A stretch of DNA of 64,000 nt from Tubulanus polymorphus (GCF_964204645.1 NC_134028.1:26284345-26348344); one strand, 5' to 3'; shown: positions 26,326 to 53,300, counted from the first letter of the stretch. Numbers and translations are program-made. Notes: generated by a model from the letters alone, not told the origin.

Positions 26326-29300
26326 ATGTGTTTACTGGTAGGAGCGTCTGGTGTCGGTAAAACATTACTGTCTAAACGATTACAAGGTAACACCCAATAA
26401 CTAATAAGTAGTCGGTGTTCTTTTTCAAGTTAAAATCTAATCTAAAAAATTCACTTTTTTGTATACACAGGATAGGCCTAAATTAATATTCTAGATTACT
26501 GACCTACGTGAAGTGAGCCTGTTATTCCAGCCTCGTATTCAGATATAGTGTGTACACACTGTATAGCTGCCTGTAGATACTGGTTGACATGAAATGTATA
26601 ACTTAACATGACGGAGCGATGATAACTAACGTAAACGTTAGTATATAGCATCGGATACTGATACTCAAATTTCTCTGAAACAAAAACTCCAGGTTTCGTA
26701 AAAACTGAGTATATTACTGAGTAGGCTCGATTGTTCAAGTAGATATATAAAGTAAATGTCTGTGCATCGATTTGTTCAGGTATCATTTCAACTCACGATT
26801 GCATCATTCCACGATATCTAAAATTTAAAAATTCAAACTCAAATTTCTCTCAAACTAAAACCTGGGGCTTTCTGAAAATCGAGTATAATATTAAGGAAAC
26901 TCTTTTCTTTAAGTTGATGTAAAGCGGATGTCTGTGCATTGATTTGATCATAATAAAAAACGCGTCATTTCAATACACGATTGCATCATGGCGCGATATT
27001 CAGAAATTTAAATTTCAAAATTAAATATCTCTAAAACTAAAACCTGAGGGTTCCTGAAAATTAAGTATATTAATAAGGAAACTCTATTCTTTAAGTTGAT
27101 TCAAGGCAGATGTCTGTGCATTGATTTGATCATAGTAAAAAAATGCGTCATTTCAATACACGATTGCATCATGGCGCGATATTCAGAAATTTAAATTTCA
27201 AAATTAAATTTCTCTCAAACTAAAACCTGAGGGTTCCTGAAAATTAAGTATATTAATAAGCAAACTCTATTCTTAAAGTTGATTTAAGGCAGATGTCTGT
27301 GCATTGATTTGATCATAGTAAAAAAAACGCGTCATTTCAATACACGATTGCATCATGGTGCGATATTCAGAAATTTAAATTTCAAAATCAAATTTCTCTT
27401 AAACTAAAACCTGAGGCTTTCTGAAAAGTAAGTATATTAATAAGCAAACTGTAGTCTTTGAGTTGATGTAAAGCGCATGTCTGTGCATTGATTTGTTCAT
27501 AGTTAGATTGCCTGTTATTGCGACACACGATTGCATCATTGCGCGATATTCAAAATTTAAAAATTCAAACTCAAATTTCTCTAAAACTAAAACCTGGGGT
27601 TTCCTGAAAAAACGATTATATCAATAAGATGACTCTATTCTTCAAGTTGATGTAAATAAGATGTCTTTGCATTGATTGGTTTATAGTAAGAATTGGTGTT
27701 ATTTCAATACTCGAAGCATCATTGCGCGAATATTCAAATGATTCATGAGGATCAAATGAGAGTGTACTGACTGTCTGAGAGTGTAACGCCTGTCTGAGCA
27801 TGTACCGCCTGTCTGAGAATGCACTGACTGTCTGAGAGTGTACTGGAATTGACCGTGTCTTCTTGGCTTTTGGAAAACTTTGATAGTATTTTATAGCTAC
27901 CATCAATTTGTAAGATTTATTGTTAACAGCCAATAGAAAAAAAAAACAAGACTAGCAGTACTCTATAGATAATTTATTCATTTGACGCACGAGCTTTTGC
28001 AACTAATGAATAGTAGCTTCATCAGGCGAATGAGTCTAAAAGTCTATCCAATAGAAAATAAATTCTGAGAAATCTAACACAATTTACTCAGATTTAATGA
28101 AAGTTCATTATTGTGTAAAATATGAATGTGCCGGCAACTAAATTAAATATCAATATTCTTTGTACAAGAATTCATTGTGAGTGGTGAAATGAATATCTGA
28201 AAATGTACAAACTGTTTATATCGAGATAAGAGACTTTTCGTTATAGAATCATATTTGTAGCCTGCATGCGTACCACAATCTATTGTAAATATCATATCGT
28301 GTGTTGCGTACCCTCAACTGCCAGGCTGTTTCTTGTCCACCATCTCTTGAATAAGTATCTGAGTTTGTACATCGAGATTTTCATGTATTCTAGTGAGATT
28401 TAATTGTATCTAGAGAATTTACACATGACATTTAGTCCGTAACTGAACTGAACTGAAGCCAGACTTAACATTACATAAAGTACTGGTTGGGCTGCATCAG
28501 ATACTTACATGGATCCGACTACGACCGCACGTTTTAGTCGTCTTTTTCCTCCATTGATGAGCGATTGTTTTTAATACATGTCGCAAATCACCAGCACCAA
28601 TCACTAATAAATTGATCACATCTAAAAGGGAAACAATAGAGACCTAGCTACGGACACCTTAAACTGCAGTTGCTTCTGGCTTATCTTTGACAGCTCCGAG
28701 AAGGGGGTACCCGTTCGTAAGTACGCATCGTGCAAGATACAATCTTTAAAGTTTGTTGACTCACTTTTTATCAGTTGGTGGAGTTGGAAGTGCAGCAGTG
28801 AAGGCGTGCCCGTGGCAATAATTTACTAGAGATGTTTTTTATTTCTATGAATATGGTACCATGTTTAAGACAGAATTGAAATAAATTCGCTGCGGCAACA
28901 TATAACAACGTGACAAAAATCGGCATTTTTGTACTTCCTCCTCTTCCACAAGTCACAACGGCGAACGCTGATCGTCGTACCTCTGCATCATCGACTTTAC
29001 AGCAAACGCCAATAGGATTTGGTCTAACTGCAGTTTGGGTCACCTATCCACTGGGTGGCGCTAATGTCTATTTATTAATGGATGAGACCTGTTTTTCTGG
29101 GATATTTTGCTTACTTTTTGGGATACATACCTCATTTATGTCTTAACAGAATGCCAAAAGTCGCGGACAACAACTGAATATCCGATATATTTCCAGTTCT
29201 GTCCCAATTAGATGGATTGGCAAAAAGACTCCTTAAGTCCAGTTGAATGAGAGAGAAAATCCTCCATTTTGTGAAATTTCTTGAATTTTTACATTGTTAC

Positions 29301-32300: not shown

Positions 32301-35300
32301 CCACCAAGAGTGAATAACTACACACACATAACTTGCATCTCCAACCACTCAGTTCTTTAATATTACCAGGGAGGTGGGAGTTCACTCCCACCTCCCTGAT
32401 ATTACACAAGTCAGTTTATAATGCAAATGATTTGGTTGACAAATTCATTATAAATATCAGCGATGATAAATGAAGAAATCTCACACTTCGAATTTAAAAT
32501 TATACGATCAAATTTATTATTACGAAACCACAACGTTTCGGCTGTTAACTAACAGCCATCATCAGGTGGAATGACCAGAAAAACAAGTTACAAAGCATAT
32601 AAACTCACAGGATCTAAAATAGAAGCAGTGTGTCAAAACTAAAGATAAACAGACCAAGCAATAAAACACCAAGGGGTACCGTGGAAACCACAGCAATTCT
32701 AAACAGTTCAGAGTAAAAACAAATTATGTAACTAAGTGAAGTGGACTGAAGAGGGTGGCGATAACAGAGTGACACATAGTGACATTAACCCAAATCTAAT
32801 AAAGAGTTGATGTGTCTGGATAATAATTGGTTATGTGGAGAAAAACCAGTATTTAAATTAGTAGATAAATTGGATTTCGAAAGTTCACATATTAGGGCTG
32901 ATTCCACTATGTGTCTCTTATTAATATCTTTACAAGGATAAATAAGTTTCGAATTCTGAAAGTCAAATTGGTGATTAGTTGTAAAGACATGATTTGCTAT
33001 TCCACTCTCAGGCTTTTGGTTGCGGATATCTATGTTGTGTTCTTTAATACGCTGACTAAGATTACGTCCCGTTTCGCCGATGTACATCATATTACAGTCT
33101 TTACATGATGATTCTTCGTCTGAATTAGATTCAAACTATGTAATATGGATGCATCCGCAAAAGAGAGTGACTGGGTAGAAGATTATCGTAACTTTTTACA
33201 CACTTATAGCTATCTGTTTTCAGAGCCTATTTTGATTTGTTAGTTGATACAAATTACCTGGCTCGCGATAAAGTTTTTCCTATCATTTACTTCGACTAAA
33301 GCATAATATATGTAACCGACCACCCAAATCAAGTCAAGTTGAATATGGGTACAATGTCGAGATGAAAACATATCCATGGTTTCCACACGAGAAAAAAAAA
33401 TAATCAACTCAAATTCAATCATGATAAACCCGTCCTTGTTCCTCGAGTAAACAAAAATGATGCCTTGTTTCTCCGCAGCGGCCGGGTCAATTTTTGTAAA
33501 ATTTGATAAAATTAGTAAACAGTTCATTTCTAGAGCTGCTGGGTTTGTTATGGTAAAATTGATCACGATTTTTAAAAAAAAAGTAATGTATAGGGTAGAT
33601 AGGCGGCCGGCCGGGTCAACTTCTAAGCTCAGCAGAGCGGGGAAACAAGGTATCAATTTTTTTAGGCTTAAGCTAGTAGTAAATATATAAATACCATTTA
33701 GCGAGACAAATGTATGATGACAGAATAACTGCAGTCTAGATTATTTCATTAATTGTTTTGGACACTGATTATGTACCGTGCTGCTTTTCAAATAGGGAAG
33801 TTTCCAGTTACAGGCGCCAGAAAATAGAAATTGTCGCCTTTCAAACGATAATTTTGGTGTCAGAGGGGGGATGGACGACAATAAATCGTGCCAAAGGTTT
33901 TACTTAAAAAAATAAATAAATCTATCCAACAACGGTACCTGTGGGACCACCTCAAAATGACGCCTAACTGGAAACTATTACATCACATGGCAACGGGGTT
34001 ATCTAATATTCAAAATGAATGATGATTCTGTTTCGCGTATTTTTAGAATCACTCATTTTAGAATCACTCTAATCCGTGTAATGTTGATAAATAAAAAAGT
34101 TTCGCAATCGAATATAATGTGATAAAATATGGAAGCAAAACCGGCTACTGACTACACACTGACCGGCTACACAGCCACGGTCAGGTGCAATTTCCAGTAA
34201 AGAAAAAAGCATACACTCACAGTACATTAGCAGGGTTAGCGGTAAAGGCCCCTTATTCTAAGTTAGGTAAAAATCCTCTACCTTTTGAACGGAGTATGAA
34301 ACAATAACTATAAGGCGGATTTAGTCATATTTATTTATTCAATGTATCTATATTTTATTGTACGGTGTACATAAGGATACCATCAACATACCAATTACTT
34401 TATACTACATTCTCAAAGTTATCGCACAGCTCGAACATATCGCAAGTTTGAAACAGGTCACCGCACAGTTAAAATGACACTTGCTTGAATTTAAAATGTT
34501 TAAAATATTAAGTGCATTATTTCAAATTTCTTTTTTTTCGCATCGCTCAGTGAAATGTAACACAAAGTAAAAATAGTCCACCGTTCGACGATGTTCCAGT
34601 TCTAATTGAAAAATGTTACAAATTAAGAGTTCACTTATTCTATGAATTCCAACAACCCCTTATTCGAAGAAATTATCATATGATTTAGGGGATTTTTACC
34701 GAGGGAATGTTTTCTCACTACTCATTAGCAGAAGCTGTTCAGAAAGTATAAAAATGTGATCTTTAGTCAGCGCATCAAAGAACATAAGCCTGAAAGTGAG
34801 GTTGCTAATCCCATTTTATCACCAATTTGACATAAGAACTCGTTATTTATACTTTAAAAAAATGCAGACACATAGTGGAATCGGCCCTATAAGCCTAAAT
34901 ATAAACGGGAGAAATTTAACTTATACAGCATTCACTTTCGGACGTAATCTTAGTCAGCGTATTAAAGAACACAACATAGATATCCGCAACCATACTGGGT
35001 GAAATTTTCCACATAGTAATTATCGGTATCTATCTATACGTATATATCAACTCTTTATTGAATATCCGTTTATTCTACAATGGACGTCATAAACTAGATT
35101 ATACTCCTTGATTCTACTAATATGTGTTTTATCCTGTAATGGACCAATGGACGCTAATACGAAGGGACGTAAAAAAGCGGCGTTAGATCATGACCAGAGC
35201 TGTAGACGGATCATATGGCAACGTTGAGATGGCTTTCCGATGAGATGACAGTATTTTGCCAATTATAGCCCCGCCGAATAGCTCTGAGCTAAGAGCAATC

Positions 35301-38300
35301 AAGCTCATTGCGTTGAGTTCATAATCTTACTTTACTATTTCGATTGAAACTAAAATTAAATTTTCAGTTGCGTCAGATAGCTTCGCCGGGGACAGTAAAA
35401 GAACTGGGTACATGTTACATCACCCATGATTAGTGACGGAGCAAATAAGCAAAACTAGGAAGAAAACAGCGAGAGGTACCTCAGTAACCACAGTCTTAAC
35501 AATCTTTGACTCCATCCAATACGAGTATTAAAGCCCATGATTGGACATTATGTAACCATGGACAAGCCTACAGCAACACCAAGCTGCCAACATCAACCGA
35601 TAATCTTGTTGGTAACGCTATTTTTGTTAAAATTGATATACTAAAAGTGGATTGATTTTTCTTCATCGTGGATATACACTTTAGTATTGCATAACATAAT
35701 TACATAGCGTTGCGTTGTTCCAATTTCCTTTACTTAGAACGTCAAGCGCATGTTGTTCTATAAGTAAAACCTGAGGTTTCTTGAAAATTAATGATGTCGG
35801 TGCAATAATCTGTTGTATTATTTCAATACACAAATGCATCTTTCGGCAATATTCAAAATTTAGAGATTCAACTAAAATTTTCTCTCAAACTAAAACCTGA
35901 AGCTTTTTGAAAAATGGACTTTGTTGAGCCTATCCTCTCTAAAGTGATAAAGAATTGATTTGTTCATAGTTAGAATACATGTTATTTCATAGAGGATAGT
36001 TAGATACACCATCGATACACAATACACACTGTAAGGGCTGACTGTAGGTTTACAGTAGCCTACCAACCACTGGAAGAGTTTCATTTCAGGCGAATGAAAT
36101 TACTCGGAGACTCCCACATACATTTTGGGGCGGCACCTCCTTTAAGTGTATAGTCTATATATATATATATATATATATATACTGGTATTCCATAAACGGT
36201 ACAGATCTTTACTGAAACGCACTCAGTTCAGTAAAATATCAAAGAATTTCGCTGCAAGTTAGTTTGCGTAAAACCTTGTACCCTCGAAGATCGCGATTAT
36301 ATATAAGTATATTATTTTGGAGCTGCAATCATGGTCAGAAAAGCCTACAAGAGGTTACACAATGCAAATCATTGCACTCTAGACGAGGAGACGGTAAAAG
36401 CGGCTATACAAAAATATGGTGTTCCGAATATTTCTCTTGGTGATTTAACTTGGGGTTTGATGTCCATTTTTATATACAAAAAAGACACCCCGAAATTACG
36501 ACGTAAATTGTACGATTACATACGTCGCCATCCAAATCTCATGGTCGATGATACACAACAAAATCAAGAACCGGAACCAATTGATCTACAAAGAAAGGCT
36601 TGGCTACCGGTAAGTTTCATATCTTTATAGTAACCTGTTATTAAGCATAAGTCATGTGTAATTGAGAAAAACTCCAGCTGATTTGCGAAGAAAATATAGA
36701 AGATAAAACCTCCACCCCCACCACCTCCCTTGAAATACATCTATTTGTCGCGCGGTAATAACCGCCTATCTATACTAAACGATTGACACATTACGAGATC
36801 CTGGCGTGCTCTGGAAGGCCGATGGTTGCTTCATACGATTGAATATTGAATTTAAAATTGATTTCATAAAATGTTTCTAACGCAATATGTAGACTAGGCT
36901 GTTAAATCCATGTTTCGCGTTTTATCAAACATTTTTTTAATACAAATATAAATGATATTTCAAAAAATTGTTTGTAAGAAACTAAAAAGCTTCAGGCCCT
37001 GTACAGCAAGAAAAGTATCAGTTGCAACTAAAAATGTCTAGGGGGTTCTTGATGTGACTAAAATGTGTACTTGACGTTCTCATAACAAGATAATTGTTAT
37101 GAGAATGTTTATAGTGTATTTTGTATGTGCATTATTTATTAATGATATAATGGAATTTTGTTCAACTTCGTGGAAATCTCACTAAATTTTTCTTAAATTT
37201 TCAAACAATTCCTATCGTCCGCATGGTCGTTGTAGCGGCTCTGCATCATCGGTCGCAACGTAACATTGCACACAGTCCCTTATTACTTCCCTGGAACCCA
37301 CCCCTACAGAAATTGATGAGAAATGATTAAAAGTTAAACTAAAAAGTAAAAAAAATATACGTATTATCATGCAGCACAGAAATCTATAGTCTAGGAATGA
37401 AGTCTCCCGCAACAATTTGTAGTGATCATGAAAATAACACTGACATCCTGTCGCCAGAACTAGAATAGCTAAAAAAGTATATAAAATTGCGTCAGTCGTG
37501 TAAAGAATTTCAAAGGACACAGTCCAACGTTATAGAAAGTAAAATAAAATAGCGAAATATCGGTAAAGAAAGTTTTAAGTACTTTAAAATTCTAGATCCG
37601 CTCCGATAATCGATTATCCCTCCGTCTGTGTTTATGTTGTGGCTATACAAACTAATACTTGCAAGGAGAGGCATCATGTTTATTACTCAAGATGAAACTT
37701 AAATTTTAAGTGTTATCTTTAATGTTCAGGACATTTTTGATTGTTGTCCACTGATATTTTAGGGCTAACCGGAATAGCCGTTGCACCAGCAGTTCACATA
37801 GATACCTGGTGCAAAAATAAACGATATCTCCATATATCTTTAGAACCACCTACTGGTAACCGCAAGTACTGGTAGGCCTGTAGGTGATCATAGCAAGGTG
37901 TGGGCAATAAATTAGCAGAAGCCGATGACAAGTAGTTAATTAAGCCTTTGCGCAGCATTCGTAGTCAATGCACATGCGTTATTACTCCAAAAGTGATGAC
38001 AGCACAATGCGCTCTTGTGCTGCGCTGAAAATAAATAATCCCCTCTCCAAATCACCACTGATTTTAAATCCCCTCTCTGATGCTTGAAGAAAGCTAGTTA
38101 TTACCACTGTCCATGGTTATTCACCCGTAAATTATATGATGTTTGGTATAAAACTCAACTTCGCGTATTTTGCTGTTGTTTTCGCCTTTGATCAACCTGC
38201 ACCAGTAATTTATTGATTATTTCATTTTCTCAGTTTAAGGCAAAAAAATGATACCCTGTTTCCCATTCTCCGACCGAGTCCCATAAAGTACGACAAAAAT

Positions 38301-41300
38301 CATAAAAATAAATGCTGCCGACCGGGCCTATTACCTTCTTATTTTTATGATGCAGATAAAAACCGACCGGGTGGGTCAATATAAGTAGTATATGGTAATG
38401 AAGTTACTTGTTTAAAATCAGATGCCAAATAGCGTGAGGTCGGGACTTGAACCTACGCCAACACTCCTGGGTAGAATCGCCGTTGTTCCAGAACCCGTAA
38501 CGTCGACTGGTGTCCAGACTTCTAGATTAGTCTGGACACCTTTGCTTTTAACAGAAATACACTCGATCATTTCGACTTAATCACTCAATCATTTCGACTT
38601 TCGAAACTCTTGTTTCATAAAGAAATTAAAAAAAATGTTTTTGAAGTTGAAATTTAAAAATTAGATTCAAATTGGAAATATAAGGTAATTTATATTTGGT
38701 TCATGCTAATGATGATGATTCTTGTCTGGGATTTGGAGATTTTTATAATTTCATTTACTTTTAGATATTTAATTCGTGGCACTAAATAAGTATTTTCATG
38801 CGTTTGAATCACGCCAACTCCCCATACTAATGGCGTTTCTTCGATATTTACTAAAGCTTATTCTATAGAACGCTTTGTAGCCATGAGCGAAAAATCCTCG
38901 GTAGTTGGGAATGATCCAAGGTTTGGCAGCTAAACTAGGCAGAGTCTCTTGCTTATTGTTTCCATTCTGGCTATTTAGAAAAATAGTTGAATAGTTAACG
39001 TACCCTCGAAAATTGGGGAAAACAGGAAGATATGAATGAACCAACATCTGGAAATCAAACTAGACCTACAAGTATACTATAATGGTATTTGACAAACAGT
39101 AAGAACTTCTAAAAACCATATCCTGTACATCTTTTTTATCTCAAAAATTTCAGTGGAAACAGTTTTGAAATGAAAATAAAGAAAGGCCGGCCTGGTGGAA
39201 ATATGTCAAATTTCATACTTTTTATGGAAAAAATAAAAATAAAATGCTGCCTGCCTGGTCACTTTTGGGCATACAGTTTTCCTCTATAGATGAGAAACAA
39301 GGTATCATTTTTGGCCATTTATATAGGTTTCGAATTGTTCTACCAGTGTCCCCGTACACAATCAAAGTTCGGTAAAGTGCAGCAATACACCATCTATCAA
39401 AAAAATAAGTATTTTTCGAACAGATCTGCACTTCTTGCACCGTGACTGATAGTAATATTTATTTGTAGGAATCCTGCAATAACATTCAAAATGAAGTTGA
39501 TTTGACCAGCTCATCGAATTCGAGTTGCATAGAATCGACCATATCCTCACCGATAACATATGCTGATATTGTTAAAGCCATGCAAACCTCTTTGTTAGCC
39601 GCTTCTGAAGAAAGCGATGATGACGGAAACAACGGCAGCAGTAGCAGCATTGACAAGGAAATTGATAAAGGTGCATTAAAAAATAAGGCCGAGTATATTC
39701 GGCTGACATCGAATGCAGCAACATCGTTATGGTCAAAAGCCTCCTTGATATCCCCAACGTATGCTGACATATTGAAGGCTACTCCACAATCGAAAAGTGG
39801 GTCTAAAAGTCAACCGGAAATGGAATCTAGAGCTGTGCCTGAAAAAACACCACCTGTATGTGTTGAGCAAAGGAATAGTGAAATAGTGCACTCAACCTAC
39901 GCCGATAAGTTGAAGGCCAACCAGCGAGTGAAATCACCCGCTAATGATTTTTCTACACATAGCTCGCTGGATGAATCGGAAATTGAGCCTATGGAATGCT
40001 CAAATGAATCAGTAGTGCGAAACGATATAGAGTCGTCGAATGATATTTCATCACTTTCGCCAACGTATGCCGACATATTGAGAACGAATCCACAATCAAG
40101 CGGCGAGACTAAAAAAGAACCCGAACGGGAATCTACACCTAAAATAACAGTACCACCGGAAGTAAGGACACCACCTCAATATGCGGAGCTACAAAGAACT
40201 GCAAAACCTCCATCGTATGACGAAGTCATGCGAAACCGACAGGCCTATGTCCTCGATGACGAAAAAATAAATGGACCAAATCGGATGACATCAATTAACG
40301 AACAAGACGTTGAACCAATCGATACAAAAAACATAGAATTTAAACGGAATCCACCGCGGCATAAACGTAAACGTTATACCGACTTTTATCGTCCAACGGT
40401 CTTCCATCGCTTAGACAGTGGGAATATTAAATACTGCTACTGCCAGGAACCAAACGATGGGGATCCTATGGTGGAATGCGATTATTGTGGCAACTGGTTT
40501 CACTATCGATGTATGAAAACAGACATCAACACGCAAAATTTTACAGATGAAACAGCCGTATTCTGCTGTTCCAGTTGCACCTCTACTTTCATTCGTGGTT
40601 CTAGCAAACGGGGCATCGTGAACATAAAAAACACATGTTGGCTAATATCGGCAATACAAGCATTTTTGTCAACAAGTTATGCCGGATTTCTGCGGACGAT
40701 GGATGTCGAGCGACCTGTGCAACGGGTAACTGATGTGGTTCAAAGGAAAATCCTTCGGATTAAAGATCAACTGTCGTGCATTATACAAATGGTTTGTACT
40801 GATACGTTTGATGAACCGTATGTGGGAAGAGAATTTATGGACACCTTGATTGAAAGTGTTAATGAACTCCTTCCTGGAGTATCTAACGGTATTATGTTTG
40901 ATTGTGACGATTTTGTACGCCAAATATTGACAAAACTGCTTGTGATGTTCGATCGCCAGGATAAACTTCGCTTTATCACAAAAACCTACTGTAAGCGTTT
41001 GAACCATCATCACGAATACATAAACAATGACCAACAATTTAATGAATTATTGATAGGTCGCTACGCTATTCCGAATGATGATATAATGATGGCAATTCGG
41101 CGCTACTTCGAGGAAGAACGCAGAGACTGTCGATGCCCATGTCCACATTGTGAAACACAGCGTCAGCGTGAAACAGAAGAAGTCAGATATATACAAAAGA
41201 TAATTAATCTGCCAAAAACGCTGATCGTAAATATGGCCCGTTGCAGGATTAACTATGAGGACGGATCACTTTTTAAGAATATGGACCCGGTGAAGCCGTC

Positions 41301-44300
41301 GTCGATATTAGATATGACATCATTCATGGGTGCTGACGCACCGCAGTATGCATCTCGGTGTTACTGGTTGTCCGCAGTTATTGTGCATCGAGGTTTCGCA
41401 GCAGATAGTGGTCATTATGTAACCTATCGATTCAACCGCGATGGGACCGTTACTTTATTCGATGACAGCGTGGTCAAAATTGTTCACCCACAATTAGCGG
41501 ATGCGGATATCACTATCAATGGACAGATGTTCATATATACGATAGATAACATCCACTGTGACGGGATACCAAAAACACAGGCCGAAAATTTGAAAGAAGT
41601 TAAACAAATGGAAAACCGATCTATTTCACCAAGGAAGTGCCGGTCACCAAATTCTCATGAATCGATTCATGAATACAAAAGTCCATCGTTCGAAGATAAA
41701 ACGGTAAGTAGCGTGACGATGACAGACGATGACATTCTGAGTCACAGGACATTGGAGGCGCTTTCAAATACAATAGTAGAAATTGATGCATATGAAGCTC
41801 CGACACCGGAACCGGCACTATTTCAGTTAAAGGCTGACGAATGGAATGAACTCATAAAAAAAGCAACCGTTATAACATCAAAGAAAAAGCCAGCTCAAAG
41901 ACAAAGATCTCTACCACCGAATTGGGTAAACATATTTCATGACTATATAAAAGAAAGCAATCCACATTGTACCATACAATTCAAGGGTCACCGAGTACGA
42001 GCAGCAAAATCAAGAAAAAGAAATGCTCCTTTATTTACAGCAACGGGTTATTGCAGCATTGGAAAGAACGAAGAAGATGTAAGGGAGTGCCCTTGTTCTA
42101 TAAAGCTGGTGATGAATGATCAATTAAATTGCATAGTTACATACACAGGTACAATACTACACGAGAAAGGTTGCAATAGCCGTAGATATTTCAGAGCAAA
42201 TGAAAGAGATGAGATGAAAGCCCAATTACTGGATGAAAAGCATCCCCGTAAATTACAAGATAGACATATAAGTCAACTTACAAAAACACAGCTAGCTTCC
42301 GGCAATTGGTCAGGTGCAACCGTATCCAGTGATGTTTATAGAAGTATGCAACATGAAGCCAGAAGAGGACTTCAAATGAATGATGATGTGTGGAAGAGTC
42401 TTATTGAAATGAAACAAAAATTCAAAATTGAAGACGGACTCGATGATGAGGACTTACCAGGATATGTACATCATATTGGAATAGATCCGGCCACCATACA
42501 TCTCTATTCCCACGCAGGAATTAAAGCATATCACGACCTTGCAACAAACTTTCCCATATATTATGATGCAACGGGGTCAATTATAAGGAAGCAAAAAGAT
42601 GGACCAGATTACTACTATCATGCATTAGTTATTCACAATCCAAACGTCAAACCAAGCACTCCTTTAGCAATAGCTGAGATGATAACCCGAAGCCAAAATG
42701 CACCCACAATTATATCATGGTTGGCAAACATCCAGCACGCTGAAAAACGAATTTACGGGTACAAAAATACGATATCACCATGCATTATTTCAGCTGATAG
42801 AAGCGCAACATTTTTGTTAGCCTGGTCGAAAATGATTAATTCTGAAGACGTTGCAGATCACTTGCAGAGAGCGTACCGAATAGTAACCGGTGAAGCTTCA
42901 AAAGATGATTTAGGAAAAACCATATACCATATGGGATGTTGCCACCTTATGAAGGATGCTAAAGTAATGGTGAAAAAGTACTATGCAGCAAATTATCGAC
43001 TCGGCATGTACATTTTCAGCGTACTGGCAAACGTCTCTAACCTGAAACGTTTTGAAGATCTATACTACAGCATTTGTTACGTATTGATTTCACAAAAAAA
43101 CTCACCAAAAACTGCTGAGCACATGCATAGACTGCAAGCTGCACTGGAAACATTGGGCACAGAGGAAGAAGATGTTATAAAAAGCACCTATGTCGAACCC
43201 GAGGTAAAAAATAACGATGATGAGGGCGGGGATGAAGAGATGTCTAATCGTTTGACAGAAGAAGAATTCATTCATTCGAATAAAACTTCGTCATTTGCTA
43301 AAATGGGTAAGAAAATACTGGAGAGGGTGCGAGCGGATATCTTGACAGAACGTGCAAACGAGTACATTGAGGAAAACCCTGCAGTATCAGAAACATTACT
43401 GAAGAAGATACAAAGTCATTACATTCCGACTATACCATTATGGTCTAACATGCTGCGTGGGGACCTCAGACGACACTTCCCAAACGGAAGTTCGCAGCGT
43501 GAATTCGTTCGCCTCACCGGTACCGTACCCAAAACACAAGGATTAATTGAAGAATTTTGGAAAGATGTCAAAGGTTCGATGACCAATTACATTCGCTGGC
43601 GCCCAGATGTATTTGTATCTAAAGCCAAAGATTTCCACGTATCCAGGTGCAAAAAGTTTTTCATGCAGTCTACTTTAAAGAAAAAGACAAAGCGTGCTGG
43701 GAAACGATTAAAAAGTCTGACGAAAGAGAAGTGGCATCATACGCCAACAGTTCTAGGCAGAAAAATGACTGGTAACAGTAACACAAAGAAAAAAGGCCAC
43801 TTCCAAAAACCTCCCAAAACTCCAGTGACAGCTCGAAAAAAAACTGATTCCACAAAATTGCAGAAAAAGATCACTCAGGCAGGAGAAAAGAACAAAGCAA
43901 TTGGCATTTCAACAAAACGGAAATTGACCTTCGAACCAATGATCAAAAAAGTTAAGTTTGATAACTCCACACTCAACAGAAGTGACCACGAAAAGACGGT
44001 AAACGAAATAAACTTCCATCCAGGAAATACATCAACCCCTAAAATGAAGAAGGTGATCACATTTAACAAACCTAAAAATTCTGTTGAAGTCATCACAATA
44101 TCACCTGAGCAACAAGAGAAAAACAACAAAAAGATCGTCTTCAGACACGCCTATCACTTGTCATTAAAGGTAATAGGAAGTATCTTGAATTCAAAGGAAT
44201 GGCTAACCGATGAAGTGATTCATGCATATGCAGAAGCTGTTTTCTGTAATACTAATGCCAATTTCCTAACAAGTTTTTTCTACAGCGCCTGCTTGAATAA

Positions 44301-47300
44301 AAATCAAACCACAGATCCAGTGGTATATCTCAAAGATGACATTACTGATAAAAAGTATATCTTTATACCAATCAATAGATCTAATCATCATTGGGTATGC
44401 GTTATCATCAATACCGAAGCAAGGCATTTGATATATCTAGATCCTACCAATAGAAGTGGCCCTACACTGCATGGACAACAGGCAATAAAGGTGATAAAGG
44501 ATGTTTTTCAACGGAAAATGGGAGAAACCTTCATGGAAAACTGGACAGAGCTATACGACCCACCAAGTAAAACTCTGCAAATTGACTTAAGCAACTGTGG
44601 TGTATACATTTGTGCATATTTCGAATCAATGTTGATATCATCAAAATTGTCATTCAATCTCAGGGAAAACTGGACAGCATTAAAGTATCGGAAGAAGATG
44701 CATGCTATTCTGATGAAAGCCAAGTCTAATGCAGTTACCTATTAAAAAGTCTAATGCAAAGTATCCACAAGGGTCAACAGTTTGTATGTTGGTTTGTTGA
44801 GGTTCTGAAATATCACTTTCCTATCAGGGTCGAGTCATCGGTCCACGCGATGCCAGTACCCACTAGGATCAATAGTTTGTATATGTCGGGTTTTTTTAAA
44901 GTTCTGAAATATCAATTTTCCCTATGAGGGTCGAGTCATCGGTCCACGCGATGCCAGCACCCACTAGGATCAATAGTTTGTATATGTCGGGTTTTTTTAA
45001 AGTTCTGAAATATCAATTTTCCCTATGAGGGTCGAGTCATCGGTCCACGCGATGCCAGTACCCACTAGGATCAATAGTTTGTATATGTCGGGTTTTTTTA
45101 AAGTTCTGAAATATCAATTTTCCCTATGAGGGTCGAGTCATCGGTCCACGCGATGCCAGTACCCACTAGGGTCAATAGTTTGTATATGTCGGTTTGTTGA
45201 GGTTCTGAAATATCAATTTTCCCTATGAGGGTCGAGTCATCGGTCCACGCGATGCCAGTACCCACTAGGATCAATAGTTTGTATATGTCGGGTTTTTTTA
45301 AAGTTCTGAAATATCAATTTTCCCTATCAGGGTCGAGTCATCGGTCCACGCGATGCCAGTACCCACTAGGATCAATAGTTTGTATATGTCGGGTTTTTTA
45401 AAGTTCTGAAATATCAATTTTCCCTATGAGGGTCGAGTCATCGGTCCACGCGATGCCAGTATCCACTAGGGTCAATAGTTTGTATATGTCGGGTTTTTTT
45501 AAAGTTCTGAAATATCAATTTTCCCTATGAGGGTCGAGTGATCGGTCCACGCGATGCCAGTACCCACTAGGGTCAATAGTTTGTATATGTCGGTTTGTTG
45601 AGGTTCTGAAATATCAATTTTCCCTATGAGGGTCGAGTCATCGGTCCACGCGATGCCAGTATCCACTAGGGTCAATAGTTTGTATATGTCGGTTTGTTGA
45701 GGTTCTGAAATATCAATTTTCCCTATGAGGGTCGAGTCATCGGTCCACGCGATGCCAGTATCCACTAGGGTCAATAGTTTGTATATGTCGGGTTTTTTAA
45801 AGTTCTGAAATATCAATTTTCCCTATCAGGGTCGAGTCATCGGTCCACGCGATGCCAGTACCCACTAGGGTCATTGTATATGTCGGTTTATTGAGGTTCT
45901 CAAATATCAATTTTCCCTATGAGGGTCGAGTCATCGGTCCACGCGATGCCAGTACCTACTAGGGTCAATAGTTTGTATATGTCGGGTTTTTTAAAGTTCT
46001 GAAATATCAATTTTCCCTATCAGGGTCGAGTCATCGGTCCACGCGATGCCAGTACCCACTAGGGTCATTGTATATGTCGGTTTATTGAGGTTCTCAAATA
46101 TCAATTTTCCCTATGAGGGTCGAGTCATCGGTCCACGCGATGCCAGTACCTACTAGGGTCAATAGTTTGTATATGTCGGTTTATTGAGGTTCTGAAATAT
46201 CACTTTTCCCTGTCAGGGTCGAGTCATCGGTCCACGCGATGCCAGTACCCACTAGGATCAATAGTTTGTATATGTCGGGTTTTTTAAAGTTCTGAAATAT
46301 CACTTTTCCCTGTCAGGGTCGAGTCATCGGTCCACGCGATGCCAGTACCCACTAGGATCAATAGTTTGTATATGTCGGGTTTTTTTAAAGTTCTGAAATA
46401 TCAATTTTCCCTATGAGGGTCGAGTCATCGGTCCACGCGATGCCAGTACCCACTAGGATCAATAGTTTGTATATGTCGGGTTTTTTTAAAGTTCTGAAAT
46501 ATCAATTTTCCCTATGAGGGTCGAGTCATCGGTCTACGCGATGCCAGTACCCACTAGGATCAATAGTTTGTATATGTCGGGTTTTTTTAAAGTTCTGAAA
46601 TATCAATTTTCCCTATGAGGGTCGAGTCATCGGTCCACGCGATGCCAGTACCCACTAGGATCAATAGTTTGTATATGTCGGGTTTTTTTAAAGTTCTGAA
46701 ATATCAATTTTCCCTATGAGGGTCGAGTCATCGGTCCACGCGATGCCAGTACCTACTAGGGTCAATAGTTTGTATATGTCGGTTTATTGAGGTTCTGAAA
46801 TATCACTTTTCCCTATCAGGGTCGAGTCATCGGTCCACGCGATGCCAGTACCCACTAGGGTCAATAGTTTGTATATGTCGGGTTTTTTTAAAGTTCTGAA
46901 ATATCAATTTTCCCTATGAGGGTCGAGTCATCGGTCCACGCGATGCCAGCACCCACTAGGATCAATAGTTTGTATATGTCGGGTTTTTTTAAAGTTCTGA
47001 AATATCAATTTTCCCTATGAGGGTCGAGTCATCGGTCCACGCGATGCCAGTATCCACTAGGGTCAATAGTTTGTATATGTCGGTTTGTTGAGGTTCTGAA
47101 ATATCACTTTTCCCTATGAGGGTCGAGTCATCGGTCCACGCGATGCCAGTACCCACTAGGATCAATAGTTTGTATATGTCGGGTTTTTTTAAAGTTCTGA
47201 AATATCAATTTTCCCTATGAGGGTCGAGTCATCGGTCCACGCGATGCCAGTACCCACTAGGATCAATAGTTTGTATATGTCGGGTTTTTTTAAAGTTCTG

Positions 47301-50300
47301 AAATATCAATTTTCCCTATGAGGGTCGAGTCATCGGTCCACGCGATGCCAGTACCCACTAGGATCAATAGTTTGTATATGTCGGGTTTTTTAAAGTTCTG
47401 AAATATCACTTTTCCCTATGAGGGTCGAGTCATCGGTCCACGCGATGCCAGTATCCACTAGGGTCAATAGTTTGTATTTGTCGGTTTATTGAGGTTCTGA
47501 AATATCAATTTTCCCTATGAGGGTCGAGTCATCGGTCCACGCGATGCCAGTACCCACTAGGGTCAATAGTTTGTATATGTCGGTTTGTTGAGGTTCTGAA
47601 ATATCAATTTTCCCTATGAGGGTCGAGTCATCGGTCCACGCGATGCCAGTACCCACTAGGATCAATAGTTTGTATATGTCGGGTTTTTTAAAGTTCTGAA
47701 ATATCACTTTTCCCTATGAGGGTCGAGTCATCGGTCCACGCGATGCCAGTATCCACTAGGGTCAATAGTTTGTATATGTCGGGTTTTTTTAAAGTTCTGA
47801 AATATCAATTTTCCCTATCAGGGTCGAGTCATCGGTCCACGCGATGCCAGTATTTACTAGGGTCAATAGTTTGTATTTGTCGGTTTATTGAGGTTCTGAA
47901 ATATCAATTTTCCCTATGAGGGTCGAGTGATCGGTCCACGCGATGCCAGTACCCACTAGGGTCAATAGTTTGTATATGTCGGTTTGTTGAGGTTCTGAAA
48001 TATCAATTTTCCCTATGAGGGTCGAGTCATCGGTCCACGCGATGCCAGTATCCACTAGGGTCAATAGTTTGTATATGTCGGGTTTTTTAAAGTTCTGAAA
48101 TATCAATTTTCCCTATGAGGGTCGAGTCATCGGTCCACGCGATGCCAGTATCCACTAGGGTCAATAGTTTGTATTTGTCGGTTTATTGAGGTTCTGAAAT
48201 ATCAATTTTCCCTATGAGGGTCGAGTCATCGGTCCACGCGATGCCAGTACCCAATAGGGTCATTGTATATGTCGGTTTGTTGAGGTTCTGAAATTTCAAT
48301 TTTCCCTATCAGGGTCGAGTCATCGGTCCACGCGATGCCAGTACCCAATAGGGTCAATAGTTTGTATATGTCGGGTTTTTTAAAGTTCTGAAATATCAAT
48401 TTTCCCTATCAGGGTCGAGTCATCGGTCCACGCGATGCCAGTACCCACTGGGGCCAATACTTTGTATGTAATACGTACATTTGTTTTTTAAAGGTATAGA
48501 TTTTCAGCTCAGAAGATTATTCCATGAGATGGTTTATGGCAAGAAAAGATGGTTTCAAGAAGATAATTCCATGGCAAAGTCTATCCCCGTATCATAGGCC
48601 CTTATAAGGGCCACTCATATGTCCAGAAAGAGCAGTTTGTGCAGCGCCTCCTCGCTTTGCTTCAAATTTTTACATTTAACTTCATATAAGTAGCCAACGA
48701 AAGGAGGTATAAACCGTGAGAAATTTTAATGAAACGTCATTTTCATTAATTATGTTTTACGTGTTCGTGTTCGTTTTGAATATCGCTCCATGGTGCAAAT
48801 GTTTATTGCAATACCACGTAAAAACCAATGCACAGACTTCTGCCTAACATCAACTTATAGATATTAAAAAAATTCAGATAAAAGAAATTCTTTTTGTCTT
48901 AAGTCAACTTAAAGAATAGAGTTTCCTGAATATTATACTTGATTTTCAGAAAGCCTCAGGTTTTAGTTTAAGAGTAATTTGATTTTGAATTTTAACTTTT
49001 TAAATATCGCGCAATGATGTAATCGTGTATTGAAATGACGCTTTTTTTACTATGATCGAATCAATGCACAGACATCTGCCTTAAATCAACTTAAAGAATA
49101 GAGTTTCCTGAATATTATACTGGATTTTCAGAAAGCCTCAGGTTTTAGTTTTAGAGAAACATGATTTTGAATTTCAACTTTTTAAATATCGCGCGATGAT
49201 GCAATCGTGTATTGAAATGACGCGTTTTTTTACTATGATCAAATCAATGCACAGACATCTGCCTTAAATCATCTTAAAGAATAGAGTTTGCTTATTAATA
49301 TACTTAATTTTCAGGAACCCTCAGGTTTTAGTTTGAGAGAAATTTAATTTTGAATTTTTACTTTTTAAATATCGTGCCATGATGTTATCGTGTATTGAAA
49401 TGACGCGTTTTTTACTATGATCGAATCAATGCACAGACATCTGCCTTAAATCAACTTAAAGAATAGAGTTTCCTTATTAATATACTTGATTTTCGGAAAG
49501 CCTCAGGTTTTAGTTTTAGAGAAATTTAATTTTGAATTTTTACTTTTTAAATATCGTGCCATGATGTAATCGTGTATTGAAATGACGCGTTTTTTACTAT
49601 GATCGAATCAATGCACAGACATCTGCCTTAAATCAACTTAAAGAATAGAGTTTCCTTATTAATATACTTGATTTTCGGAAAGCCTCAGGTTTTAGTTTTA
49701 GAGAAATTTGATTTTGAATTTTAAATTTCTGAATATCGCGCCATGATGCAATCGTGTATTGAAATGACGCGTTTTTTTACTATGATCAAATCAATGCACA
49801 GACATCTGCCTTAAATCAACTTAAAGAATAGAGTTTCCTTATTAATATACTTGATTTTCGGAAAGCCTCAGGTTTTAGTTTTAGAGAAATTTGATTTTGA
49901 AATTTAAATTTCTGAATATCGCGCCATGATGCAATCGTGTATTGAAATGACGCGTTTTTTTACTATCATCGAATCAATGCACAGACATCTGCCTTGAATC
50001 AACTTAAAGAATAGAGTTTCCTGAATATTATACTGGATTTTCAGAAAGCCTCAGGTTTTAGTTTTAGAGAAACATGATTTTGAATTTTAACTTTTTAAAT
50101 ATCGCGCCATGATGCAATCGTGTATTGAAATGACGCGTTTTTTTACTATGATCAAATCAATGCACAGACATCTGCCTTAAATCATCTTAAAGAATAGAGT
50201 TTCCTGAATATTATACTGGATTTTCAGAAAGCCTCAGGTTTTAGTTTTAGAGAAACATGATTTTGAATTTTAACTTTTTAAATATCGCGCAATGATGCAA

Positions 50301-53300
50301 TCGTGTATTGAAATGACGCGTTTTTTTACTATGATCAAATCAATGCACAGACATCTGCCTTAAATCATCTTAAAGAATAGAGTTTGCTTATTAATATACT
50401 TACTTTTCAGGAACCCTCAGGTTTTAGTTTGAGAGAAATTTAATTTTAAAATTTAAATTTCTGAATATCGCGCCATGATGCAATCGTGTATTGAAATGAC
50501 GCGTTTTTTTACTATGATCGAATCAATGCACAGACATCTGCCTTAAATCAACTTAAAGAATAGAGTTTCCTGAATATTATACTCGATTTTCAGAAAGCCT
50601 CAGGTTTTAGTTTGAGAGAAATTTGATTTTGAAATTTAAATTTCTGAATATCGCGCCATGATGCAATCGTGTATTGAAATGACGCGTTTTTTTACTATAA
50701 TCAAATCAATGCACAGACTTCTGCCTTGAATCAACTTAAAGAATAGAGTTTGCTTATTAATATACTTAATTTTCAGGAACCCTCAGGTTTTAGTTTTAGA
50801 GAAATTTAATTTTGAAATTTAAATTTCTGAATATCGCGCCATGATGCAATCGTGTATTGAAATGACGCGTTTTTTTACTATGATCAAATCAATGCACAGA
50901 CATCTGCCTTGAATCAACTTAAAGAATAGAGTTTCCTGAATATTATACTCGATTTTCAGAAAGCCTCAGGTTTTAGTTTTAGAGAAATTTGATTTTGAAA
51001 TTTAAATTTCTGAATATCGCGCCATGATGCAATCGTGTATTGAAATGACGCGTTTTTTTACTATAATCAAATCAATGCACAGACTTCTGCCTTGAATCAA
51101 CTTAAAGAATAGAGTTTGCTTATTAATATACTCGATTTTCAGAAAGCCTCAGGTTTTAGTTTTAGAGAAATTTAATTTTGAAATTTAAATTTCTGAATAT
51201 CGCGCCATGATGCAATCGTGTATTGAAATGACGCGTTTTTTTACTATGATCAAATCAATGCACAGACATCTGCCTTGAATCAACTTAAAGAATAGAGTTT
51301 CCTGAATATTATACTGGATTTTCAGAAAGCCTCAGGTTTTAGTTTTAGAGAAACATGATTTTCAATTTTAACTTTTTAAATATCGCGCAATGATGCAATC
51401 GTGTATTGAAATGACGCGTTTTTTTACTATGATCAAATCAATGCACAGACATCTGCCTTAAATCATCTTAAAGAATAGAGTTTCCTGAATATTATACTGG
51501 ATTTTCAGAAAGCCTCGGGTTTTAGTTTAAGAGGAATTTGATTTTGAATTTTTACTTTTTAAATATCGTGCCATGATGTAATCGTGTATTGAAATGACGC
51601 GTTTTTTACTATGATCGAATCAATGCACAGACATCTGCCTTAAATCAACTTAAAGAATAGTTTCCTGAATATTATACTGGATTTTCAGAAAGCCTCAGGT
51701 TTTAGTTTAAGAGGAATTTGATTTTTAATTTTAACTTTTTAAATATCGCGCAATGATGCAATCGCGTATTGAAATGACGCGTTTTTTTTTACTATGATCA
51801 AATCAATGCACAGACATCTGCCTTGAATCAACTTAAAGAATAGAGTTTGCTTATTAATATACTTGATTTTCAGACAGCCTCAGGTTTTAGTTTTAGAGAA
51901 ATTTGATTTTGAAATTTAAATTTCTGAATATCGCGCCATGATGCAATCGTGTATTGAAATGACGCATTTTTTTACTATGATCAAATCAATGCACAGACAT
52001 CTGCCTTAAATCAACTTAAAGAATAGAGTTTTCTTATTAATATACTTGATTTTCAGACAGCCTCAGGTTTTAGTTTTAGAGAAATTTGATTTTGAAATTT
52101 AAATTTCTGAATATCGCGCCATGATGCAATCGTGTATTGAAATGACGCGTTTTTTTACTATGATCAAATCAATGCACAGACATCTGCCTTAAATCAACTT
52201 AAAGAATAGAGTTTCCTGAATATTATACTGGATTTTCAGAAAGCCTCATGTTTTAGTTTAAGAGGAATTTGATTTTGAATTTTAACTTTTTAAATATCGC
52301 GCAATGATGCAATCGTGTATTGAAATGACGCGTTTTTTTACTATGATCAAATCAATGCACAGACATCTGCCTTAAATCAACTTAAAGGATAGAGTTTCCT
52401 GAATATTATACTGGATTTTCAGAAAGCCTCAGGTTTTAGTTTAAGAGGAATTTGATTTTGAATTTTAACTTTTTAAATATCGCGCAATGATGCAATCGTG
52501 TATTGAAATGACGCGTTTTTTTTACTATGATCAAATCAATGCACAGACATCTGCCTTAAATAAACTTAAAGAATAGTTTCCTGAATATTATACTGGATTT
52601 TCAGAAAGCCTCAGGTTTTAGTTTTAGAGAAATTTGATTTTGAATTTTAATTTTTAAATACTGCGCCTTGATGCAGTCGTGTATTGAAATATTGCATTTT
52701 TTACTATGATCAAATCATTGCACAGACATCTGCCTTAAAGAATAGAGTTTCCTTTATAATATTCTCGATTTTCAGAAAGTCTCAGGTTTTAGATTAATGG
52801 AATTTTATTTTTTGAAATTTAAATTTCTGAATATCGCGCAATGATGCAATCGTGTATTGAAATGACGCGTTTTTTTTACTATGAAAAAATCAATGCACAG
52901 ACATCTGCCTTGAATCAACTTAAAGACTAGAGTTAATATACTTAATTATCCTCAGGTTTGAGTTTAAGAGAAATTTGATTTTTAATTTTAATTTTTGAAT
53001 ATCGTGCCACGATGCTATCGTCTATTGAAATGACGCATTTTTTACTATAATCAAACCAATGCACAGACACCTGCTTTACATCAACTTTACATCAGAGTGT
53101 GCTTATTAATATACTTAATTTTAAGGAAGTCTCAGGTTTCAGAGTTTCAGAGAAATCTCATTATGAATTTTAACTTTTTAAATATCACCCAATGATGCAA
53201 TCGTGTATTGAAATGACGCGTTTTTTACTATGATCAAATCAATGCACAGACATCTGCCTTAAATCAACTTAAAGAATAGAGTTTCCTTAATAATATACTT

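Follow-up and report, generated by a model that had tools for sequence, protein, structure and literature searches.

The window, the 64,000-nucleotide stretch of DNA analysed here, was initially annotated as carrying a transposase to which a PHD finger and two different ubiquitin-family proteases are joined. The question is whether such a protein exists, to what kind of element it belongs, and what its proteases would do there. Pfam matches, fold prediction, conserved catalytic residues, the ends of the element and its target site duplication (TSD) together bear out the fusion. On balance, a 27-kb Mutator foldback transposon, likely Rehavkus, probably has its intact transposase gene here, and the USP and Ulp1 domains of the enzyme would strip ubiquitin and SUMO near the bound ends. 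The initial description of the domains holds, while the surrounding 27-kb element was absent from it.

Ends, arrays and insertion site of the element

The transposon spans 27,264 bp (26502-53765) between the copies of a 9-bp target duplication. It ends in 107-bp termini and contains inverted arrays of a 183-bp repeat and a minisatellite with a 101-bp unit. The sequence 26507-26608 matches 53659-53760, read in reverse complement, in 102 of 102 bases. The outermost 5 bases of the two ends are unlike, and each type of end recurs in other genomic copies. Because loose read ends stack just before 26502 (230 reads in run X4, contigs in X1-X3), the element end and the 9-bp duplication are fixed, and an 11-bp duplication, possible from the window alone, is ruled out. 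The probability of a 9-mer agreeing by chance at a fixed site is about 6e-6.

Table 1. Features of the element and its insertion site (window coordinates)
Feature	Coordinates	Strand	Basis or remark
Host small Arf-like GTPase, exon 1	26326..26386	+	P-loop in exon 1
Left TSD copy, 9 bp	26493..26501	+	Identical 9-mer at 53766-53774
Left terminal inverted repeat (TIR), 107 bp	26502..26608	+	Reverse-complement match to right end
Left subterminal 183-bp array, ~5 units	26665..27738	-	Inverted relative to right array
SGNH/GDSL-type hydrolase passenger gene, three exons, 247 aa	29318..31243	-	Gene model
Nested fragment, presumably Penelope-like (GIY-YIG piece)	32461..33135	-	Pfam GIY-YIG E 2.3e-4, slightly under cut-off
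Decayed 183-bp units, left-end orientation	35757..35986	-	76-91% identity to arrays; directly upstream of transposase gene
Possible transposase exon 1, 93 codons	36331..36609	+	In-phase GT/AG junction to 39469; candidate
Main transposase frame	39469..44745	+	1,758 aa stop-to-stop; 1,721 aa (P0001) from ATG 39580
PHD finger, aa 286-333	40435..40578	+	Pfam 26.3 bits, cut-off 24
USP/C19 domain, aa 344-653	40609..41538	+	Pfam UCH/USP E 1.7e-20
Predicted WRKY/GCM1-like zinc DNA-binding domain, aa 745-866	41812..42177	+	Conservation and middling fold matches
RNase H-like DDE domain with long helical insertion	42397..43674	+	Model, fold search, conservation
Ulp1/C48 domain, aa 1540-1703	44197..44688	+	Pfam Peptidase_C48 E 4.9e-13
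101-bp minisatellite, 37 copies	44760..48467	+	TRF; begins 15 bp past transposase stop
Right subterminal 183-bp array, 25 units	48898..53458	+	TRF
Right terminal inverted repeat	53659..53765	-	Pairs with left terminus
Right TSD copy, 9 bp	53766..53774	+	Pairs with left copy

TRF delimits the left 183-bp array at 26783-27736 (5.2 copies); the slightly longer BLAST interval entered in Table 1 has at most 86% identity to the right array. The 101-bp minisatellite is one-sided, having no further copy anywhere in the 64-kb window. When one unit of each was compared, the terminal repeat, the 183-bp repeat and the 101-bp repeat had no motif of 8 or more bases in common. The decayed left-type 183-bp units beside the transposase gene suggest that an 8-kb block with the SGNH gene was inserted into the left array.

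The SGNH gene has exons at 31243-31022, 30937-30764 and 29665-29318, with AG acceptors, GT donors and no internal stops, and its product contains the S, GxND and DxxH motifs of the hydrolases. Exon 1 gives weak Pfam GDSL matches (E 0.012, under the cut-off). The NCBI protein P0160 (Pfam PF13472; 7-member cluster) is identical over 177 aa spanning both exon junctions. In run X1 the contig depth of this gene is 168, compared with 39 for the flank. Next to it is the nested Penelope-like fragment with the GIY-YIG piece; 32461-33107 is skipped in other copies (contigs in X1-X3, 62 reads in X4).

The element occupies intron 1 of the small-GTPase gene, presumably ARL16. Exon 2 (53809-53864) is in phase, later G-motif exons are situated at about 54170 and 55100, and the intron without the element measures 149 bp. 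A 38-aa exon of this gene has no Pfam match. The insertion point is 176 bp past the GTPase ATG, and the start codon of a divergent neighbour, identified by Pfam as RRP36, lies 912 bp from it. In run X1 one contig spans the flank at the site and continues for 3.3 kb without the element end; the reads show a haplotype lacking this end, from which we infer an empty site.

The read depth of the left end is 36-42 times that of the flank, corresponding to about 40 left ends per genome. The coding part has a depth of 1.0-3.2x in run X1 and 0-2.4x in X4, summarised as 1-3 copies, and the 3' end is missing from X4. The same termini are attached to other flanks in four runs (X1-X4), and near-identical contigs cover the transposase frame in X1. 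The protein is intact and the element apparently recently mobile.

The transposase gene and its core

The initial annotation had taken 36331-44745 as a single open frame. The real frame extends from the ATG at 39580 to 44745, and 36331-36609 is a separate frame of 93 codons. The latter is a candidate first exon, with a GT at 36610 and an AG at 39467-8, and the spliced product would have 1,852 aa. Its GC3 is 0.35, the main frame having 0.38 and the host genes 0.50-0.66. Against a profile of the relatives' N-termini the candidate scored a non-significant E 1.4 (rank 6 among 1,129 frames), it fell outside the top 6 of a second N-terminus profile, and no splice junction for it is listed in the read data. 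The linkers between the domains of P0001 are disordered, S/T/P-rich or basic.

The central region, described earlier as a DDE-like core, models as an RNase H-type fold (pLDDT 89.8) with residues D996, D1073, H1122, W1288 and E1324. The nearest structure is ISCth4 of the IS256/Mutator type (Z 11.9), followed by Hermes (9.9) and the P element (9.6); ISCth4 is also the top Foldseek match (E 6.7e-4). The relationship is found by fold comparison only: a sequence profile of the core retrieved no transposase among PDB sequences, and the Pfam MULE families match neither the P0001 core nor any of 81 relatives. The residues are conserved in the relatives (D996 in 138/140, D1073 in 138/139, H1122 in 134/136, W1288 in 84/96 and E1324 in 86/89). 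The GCCH motif had been assigned to the CxxH position; its histidine, H1122, fits this assignment, but the canonical Cys position, Cys or Asp in MULEs, is Gly (G1119). Cys occupies this position in 126 of 136 relatives, and the change is common to the nearest relatives, P0003, P0017 and P0065.

MULE transposases carry an N-terminal zinc domain of WRKY, GCM1 or FLYWCH type for DNA binding. The putative zinc domain here has C797, C825, C837 and H861, each kept in 97-99% of about 100-118 relatives. Residues 1-122 of its model have middling similarity to Aft2 (Z 5.7, rmsd 3.0, 72 aligned) and WRKY1 (Z 4.8).

PHD finger and proteases

The chromatin reader proposed for the transposase is recognised by Pfam as a PHD finger. 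Its methyl-lysine cage positions are Y285, M297 and W306, with D301 at the acidic H3R2 position, and all four align with Spp1 and PHF13/23. The closest PDB sequences are PHF23, Spp1, PHF13, DIDO1, TAF3 and BPTF, whose PHD fingers read H3K4me3 through these cage positions. All 15 aligned PHD fingers of the family have the cage Trp. Judged from these residues, the finger is fairly likely to read H3K4me3.

Both protease domains had been credited with apparently intact catalytic residues, and these were located. The USP domain has N348, C353, H612 and D628, and its Pfam match agrees with the modelled fold (pLDDT 77), which resembles USP30, Ubp8, USP46 and USP1 (E ~1e-18). The Gln usually present in the QxD loop motif is missing from it, Q or E being nearby in 14 of the 14 other family domains, and it has Ile in place of Asn after the Cys box. 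The Ulp1 domain has the triad H1604, D1621 and C1673, the oxyanion Gln Q1667 and the upstream Trp W1541. Its top PDB matches are SENP2, SENP3, SENP5 and Ulp1 (E 1e-7 to 3e-6), and that to ChlaDub2 is weaker (E 0.002). Nevertheless, SUMO specificity is not assured, because C48 folds include deubiquitinases and deneddylases.

In the family, C and H of the USP domain are each present in 15/15 and D/N in 15/15, while H, C and Q of the Ulp1 domain are present in 15/15 and D in 14/15. The USP domains are mostly 17-30% identical and yet invariant in the protease residues. Such invariance at about 20% identity points to selection for activity, and both proteases are probably active. A tree of the 15 USP domains is too weak for counting acquisitions.

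Relatives of the transposase

A HMMER search gave 779 relatives at E <= 1e-3, and the comparisons rest on the best 150 of these; word-indexed protein searches gave one relative each. Both proteases occur in 9 of the 81 relatives scanned with Pfam (among the best 150 of 779), mostly with USP after the core, and, by profiles built in this analysis, in 10 of the 19 relatives of at least 1,300 aa. They are found across both halves of the core tree, domain order varies freely, and one relative, P0039, carries an additional Macro domain. Many relatives are without a protease, though most of these are fragments. A metagenome scan found four short loci (1-4 kb) with pieces of the core, one with a PHD, all too short for ends or passengers.

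The two-protease fusion is a family trait, recurrent across relatives. None of the three outcomes named at the outset as speaking against the fusion came up: a central region that does not model as an RNase H-like DDE fold, inactive protease domains, or an architecture catalogued before. The earlier impression that no transposase with PHD, USP and Ulp1 had been catalogued agrees with a literature search, with Repbase Reports outside its scope, in which no transposase was described with both USP and Ulp1 or with all three domains.

Relationship to known systems

The RNase H-like DDE core with a helical insertion, H1122 and W1288, the 9-bp TSD (8-11 bp in the superfamily) and the long termini are features of MULE/Mutator elements, and a mobile MULE-type foldback element is almost certain. 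Membership in Rehavkus proper is likely, the fit being one of anatomy; neither Rehavkus nor NOF was attached as a name to any of the 30 relatives looked up. The Repbase group Rehavkus includes Rehavkus-1_HR, -1_TC, -3_TC and -1_DY, and its inverted termini hold tandem repeats. Repbase reportedly notes an Ulp1 domain in some Rehavkus proteins. Rehavkus is placed in MuDR/MULE, with a 9-bp TSD, TIRs of 26-400 bp, a single transposase frame, a PHD and a minisatellite preceding the 3' TIR (PMC6446971). The present element has the same TSD length, a 107-bp TIR within the range, a PHD finger in its one transposase frame, a minisatellite ahead of the 3' TIR and, within its inverted termini, repeats arranged in tandem. 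It differs in its length of 27.3 kb, compared with 4.9-18.5 kb for six listed Rehavkus elements, in its SGNH passenger, in the USP domain and second protease, which the available descriptions do not mention, and in its host, which lies outside the arthropods and annelids listed.

The foldback MULE Muta1 of Aedes aegypti requires the equivalent D, D, H, W and E residues (PMC5225508). The two elements share this residue set, an 8-9-bp TSD, subterminal repeats and many non-autonomous derivatives. However, Muta1 is 3.2 kb long and encodes 504 aa, has no PHD or protease, and has a much shorter insertion domain; its D2-H and D2-E spacings are 24 and 136, compared with 49 and 251 in P0001. Because of this far longer spacing and the missing Pfam MULE match, the group is distant from typical MULEs. 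The cores of ISCth4 (IS256 family) and Hermes (hAT) are structurally alike at 9-11% identity, with an rmsd of 5-6 Å over 234-261 residues, but have no accessory domains.

Ulp1, OTU or PHD domains are borne by the transposases or elements of Ginger1 and of plant and hydra MULEs, Ginger1 having OTU or Ulp1 but never both, and one protist transposase, from Trichomonas, is fused to Peptidase C19 (PMC2836005). Unlike Ginger1, the present chain combines USP, Ulp1 and PHD, and the Trichomonas case is an unrelated transposase. VANC of the VANDAL MULEs is an element-encoded factor causing sequence-targeted loss of silencing (PMC6446971). It works on DNA methylation as a protein of its own, in contrast to the fused proteases here, and serves as an analogy only. 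The same is true of RAG1/RAG2, a DDE enzyme of related fold. RAG combines an H3K4me3-reading PHD partner with a ubiquitin-pathway domain; however, the RAG2 PHD is situated on another chain, and RAG1 adds ubiquitin, which the present proteases are predicted to remove. Zisupton/KDZ elements, characterised by KDZ, CxC, SWIM or SAP domains and an 8-bp TSD, were rejected as relatives: none of these domains has a Pfam match at E <= 1, and the TSD here is 9 bp.

Proposed function

By comparison with Muta1, the zinc domain would bind both the termini and the arrays of repeats; the DDE core would excise the element via a hairpin on the flanking DNA and insert it at cuts staggered by 9 bp, and the roughly 40 shorter derivatives would be mobilised by the small number of coding copies. 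The PHD finger would anchor the complex to nucleosomes carrying H3K4me3, so that insertion beside promoters is favoured; Muta1, which has no PHD, likewise favours gene-rich sites (PMC5225508). As part of the same chain, the proteases would reach the repeats of the element and erase SUMO and ubiquitin there, blunting SUMO-dependent silencing and the SUMO/ubiquitin-triggered removal of the transpososome. In flies, piRNA silencing depends on SUMO, as stated in a preprint (bioRxiv 2021.07.27.453956). That such local anti-silencing or self-protection is the main job of the proteases has slightly less than an even chance of being correct. No fixed geometry backs one mechanism, because domain order differs among the relatives.

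The proteases might instead tune DNA repair at the breaks made by the transposase, stripping histones or repair factors of ubiquitin or SUMO where the element leaves and where it lands, with little role in silencing. In Ginger transposases, such a repair role has been put forward for Ulp1 and OTU domains (PMC2836005). Fusion to a cutting enzyme places the proteases at the break, and USP1 and SAGA Ubp8 are among the near-equal fold matches of the USP domain. These USP-subfamily matches are, however, tied and thus uninformative on substrate, and the promoter-type PHD and the gain of a Macro domain in P0039 suit chromatin conflict at least equally well, leaving repair as a conceivable but rather unlikely main role. 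It is improbable that one or both proteases cut their own long chain and free the core transposase, with ubiquitin-like substrates secondary. Viral papain-like proteases do process their own chain, and the character of the linkers and the free domain order are compatible with such cleavage, but the USP and SENP-type folds are complete in the two domains and require a folded ubiquitin-like substrate, and many relatives, albeit mostly fragments, have no protease.

It is very improbable that the extra domains are cargo picked up from the host, in the manner of Pack-MULEs, and have no part in transposition. The element does gather cargo, as the SGNH gene and nested repeats show, but the domains are fused in frame, they retain catalytic residues in 15 of 15 cases at about 20% identity, and they occur in each half of the core tree. 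The low copy number of the coding part would suit a domesticated host gene or a chimeric assembly. Such a reading is hardly credible in view of the perfect termini and the 9-bp duplication that split a host intron, the joining of the termini to other flanks in four runs, the near-identical frame contigs in X1 and the 3' end absent from X4.

The removal of ubiquitin and SUMO near the bound ends might belong to a wider pattern. It is a speculative and rather doubtful extension that the element represents a widespread, undescribed lineage of giant foldback elements in marine invertebrates and rotifers, in which the PHD picks promoters and the proteases erase SUMO and ubiquitin at the element's own arrays, so that its copies escape silencing. 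The mark-erasing modules would then be swappable, comprising USP, Ulp1, Macro in one relative and perhaps the SGNH passenger. Were this true, it would be the first case of an animal transposon with its own enzyme against SUMO-dependent piRNA silencing. Why transposons retain ubiquitin-family proteases has been guesswork since the plant Ulp1-MULE and Ginger papers. In the present element a single chain joins two proteases to a promoter-type reader, the ends are defined, and some 40 insertions can be mapped; single Cys or Trp mutants could tell roles in targeting, anti-silencing and repair apart. The element also broadens the group of Rehavkus-like transposons, which has been little studied, with a Mutator-type enzyme moving 27 kb and foldback ends linked to satellite arrays.

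The copy described here is inserted at a divergent promoter, a single case that fits targeting by the PHD finger.

Organization of the element and its insertion site

The element carrying the transposase gene is a Rehavkus-like foldback MULE. Rehavkus elements, known from Repbase only, make 9-bp duplications, encode a PHD and carry a minisatellite ahead of the 3' TIR according to the available text of PMC6446971. Their ends contain tandem repeats (accessible parts of bioRxiv 2024.12.02.626372 and PMC10218199), and they have been merged into MuDR (PMC4455052, accessible part).

Features of the element and neighboring host genes (window positions)
Feature	Position	Strand	Remarks
Suf/CSTF3-like host gene	578-2782	+	long single frame, 734 aa, no intron in this frame
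RRP36 host gene	24724-25590	-	long single frame
Element	26502-53765		27,264 bp; perfect 9-bp duplication on both sides
Terminal repeats	outermost in element		107 bp each, 102 of these identical inverted copies
Imperfect palindromes, 22 bp	26543-26564; 53703-53724		one within each terminal repeat
Inverted subterminal arrays	inside termini		183-bp repeat; ~5 units left, 25 right
SGNH hydrolase gene	29318-31243	-	left arm; three exons, intact
High-copy short repeats	29061-29372; 30558-30723; 32524; 33448-33663		nested in left arm
GIY-YIG fragment	left arm		nested
Decayed 183-bp units	near 35.8 kb		left arm
93-codon frame	from 36331		possible exon 1
Transposase frame	39469-44745	+	1,758 aa stop to stop; 1,721 aa from ATG 39580
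Disordered N-terminal region	39469-40250	+	SPTYADIL-like motif present at least three times, with a fourth variant preceding the ATG
Minisatellite, 101 bp	begins 15 bp past transposase stop		one-sided, 37 units

The left boundary of the element is fixed by the switch to foreign flanks, which directly precede position 26502 in 230 reads of sequencing run X4 and in contigs of runs X1-X3. The version of the outer bases that belongs to the right end is carried by 63 reads. The element interrupts intron 1 of a small GTPase gene, an intron that measures 149 bp without it, at a point 176 bp after the ATG of this gene and 912 bp from that of the divergent RRP36 gene. The terminal palindromes are candidate binding sites of the transposase.

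The four runs represent at most three samples from two studies. In both X1 and X4, depth at the left end is 36-42 times that of the single-copy flank. Over the coding part the ratio is 1.0-3.2 in X1 and drops from 2.4 to 0 toward the 3' end in X4, all contig depths being rough. Among the X1 contigs are some with 0-1 differences across 1.0-1.3 kb of the gene region. At the insertion site, however, X1 yields a single contig of 3,991 bases that covers the flank with two small indels relative to the window and continues for 3.3 kb without this terminus; we infer that it represents the empty site. The depth ratios, the near-identical gene contigs and this site contig are read here as a small number of coding copies, numerous shorter derivatives and an insertion that is polymorphic. 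Elsewhere, copies lack 33168-37871 or the nested GIY-YIG fragment. The element is real and intact, and probably recently mobile.

The transposase frame

The initial annotation described a PHD-USP-DDE-Ulp1 fusion in a single open frame from 36331 to 44745. All of its named motifs are present and its 3' portion is the only long frame of the region, but position 36331 opens the separate 93-codon frame. An in-phase splice of this frame onto 39469 would be possible, and its GC3 is similar to that of the main frame. Nevertheless, it did not stand out among 1,129 frames when these were searched with a profile of the relatives' N-termini, so that it is only possibly an exon of the transposase. A small helical N-terminal domain with the pattern W..(A/L)...K.(N/D)(S/T)..NR..L and without a Pfam match is common to about nine relatives, among them P0057, P0087, P0124, P0144 and P0046; the likeness of the possible exon to this domain was seen by eye only.

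Pfam detects a PHD (residues 286-333), a UCH/USP domain (344-653) and Peptidase_C48 (1540-1703) above cut-offs, and has no match in the 600-residue center. The disordered N-terminal region contains two PPxY-like motifs, and a SIM-like hydrophobic run (1505-1510) immediately precedes the Ulp1 domain; WW-domain ligases and SUMO, respectively, could dock at these motifs.

The PHD is nearest to those of PHF23, Spp1 and PHF13, with the cage positions kept, and the C48 domain to SENP2/3/5 and Ulp1. The USP model fits solved USPs, none of them preferentially, at E about 1e-18. In this USP the QxD loop lacks its Gln, and the Asn following the Cys box is lost as well, which argues against full activity.

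The DDE core

The proposed DDE core is borne out by its predicted fold. The model of residues 745-1375 has a pLDDT of 89.8, and a wide fold search matched it to the RNase H-like transposases ISCth4 (Z 11.9, rmsd 5.3, 234 residues aligned), Hermes (Z 9.9) and P element (Z 9.6), while its N-terminal part matched Aft2 (Z 5.7). Foldseek ranked ISCth4, Hermes and RAG1 highest, with one match only at E < 1e-3. Together with the 9-bp duplication and the long ends, the modeled fold places the core on the Mutator/IS256 side.

A HMMER search found 779 relatives at E up to 1e-3. Among the best 150 of them, D996, D1073, H1122, W1288, E1324 and an upstream C-C-C-H set are near-invariant. Similar D, D, H, W and E residues are essential in Muta1 (available text of PMC5225508); the spacings are much longer here. 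The Gly replacing the Cys of CxxH also occurs in the nearest relatives, which makes it a trait of the clade and not damage.

Accessory domains in the family

The domain combination recurs among the relatives. Pfam was run on 81 of the best 150, namely 80 listed relatives of at least 640 aa and P0002, and detected USP in 22, C48 in 14, PHD in 13, both proteases in nine and all three domains in two. Profiles built from the same proteins, and hence partly circular, gave 30, 17, 18, 10 and four, respectively, in all 150; among the 19 proteins of at least 1,300 aa, 15 have USP and 10 both proteases. Most entries are fragments, so that absences mean little. In 15 USP and 15 Ulp1 domains the catalytic Cys and His never vary, the third residue being D or N; the USP domains mostly share 17-30% identity. 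The joining of two proteases and one reader to a transposase is thus a design of the family as a whole.

The commonest order is PHD-DDE-USP-Ulp1. Ulp1 precedes USP in P0113, and the PHD may follow the core. Among the relatives examined, USP lies before the core elsewhere only in sea cucumber proteins, which are overlapping partial records: P0070 and P0158 comprise the PHD, the USP and the beginning of the core, and P0003 reads USP tail-core-Ulp1. In a FastTree of 97 cores, P0003 and P0017 form the sister group of the transposase (support 1.0).

Ulp1, OTU, PHD and one C19 fusion are present on other transposases, and in Ginger1 OTU and Ulp1 never occur together (both from the accessible part of PMC2836005). 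The available portions of PMC13359780, PMC4079207, PMC8834629 and bioRxiv 2021.09.26.461848 contain nothing on proteases. Within the openly accessible literature searched, no transposase with both USP and Ulp1 was found described, nor was such a family-level design.

Individual relatives have further domains: P0039 ends in a Macro domain (1580-1675), P0077 has a BAG domain (254-324), P0061 an HMG-like domain (458-505) and P0016 a second, partial USP. P0098, a PHD-bearing member of this animal transposase family, is labeled at NCBI as a protein of a bacterial metagenome-assembled genome and probably represents host contamination.

Possible roles of the domains

The DDE core would cut and paste the element at its repeat-rich ends, a step well supported by the anatomy of the element and by analogy with Muta1, whose excision passes through a flanking hairpin (available text of PMC5225508 and PMC5499845). 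The PHD is a likely reader of H3K4me3 and could favor insertion near promoters. The single insertion site, 176 bp past the ATG of the GTPase gene, fits such a bias; however, MULEs without a PHD favor genes too.

The proteases may strip SUMO and ubiquitin locally, which would work against silencing and against the disposal of bound transposase, or, as the main rival explanation holds, they may tune break repair. Local removal is tentatively taken as the most likely reading because the proteases would ride on the same polypeptide that attaches to the arrays of the element itself. In flies, SUMO is required for piRNA-guided heterochromatin (accessible part of bioRxiv 2021.07.27.453956).

The left arm

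Depth over the SGNH contig is about fourfold that of the flank, corresponding to about four copies, and the passenger gene therefore moves along with the element family. An NCBI protein named as from Tubulanus polymorphus (P0160) agrees with the SGNH model at every one of 177 aa spanning both junctions. It begins downstream of the catalytic Ser, so that its start may be wrongly placed. The short repeats of the left arm, with depths of hundreds to over a thousand times that of the flank, are probably MITEs.
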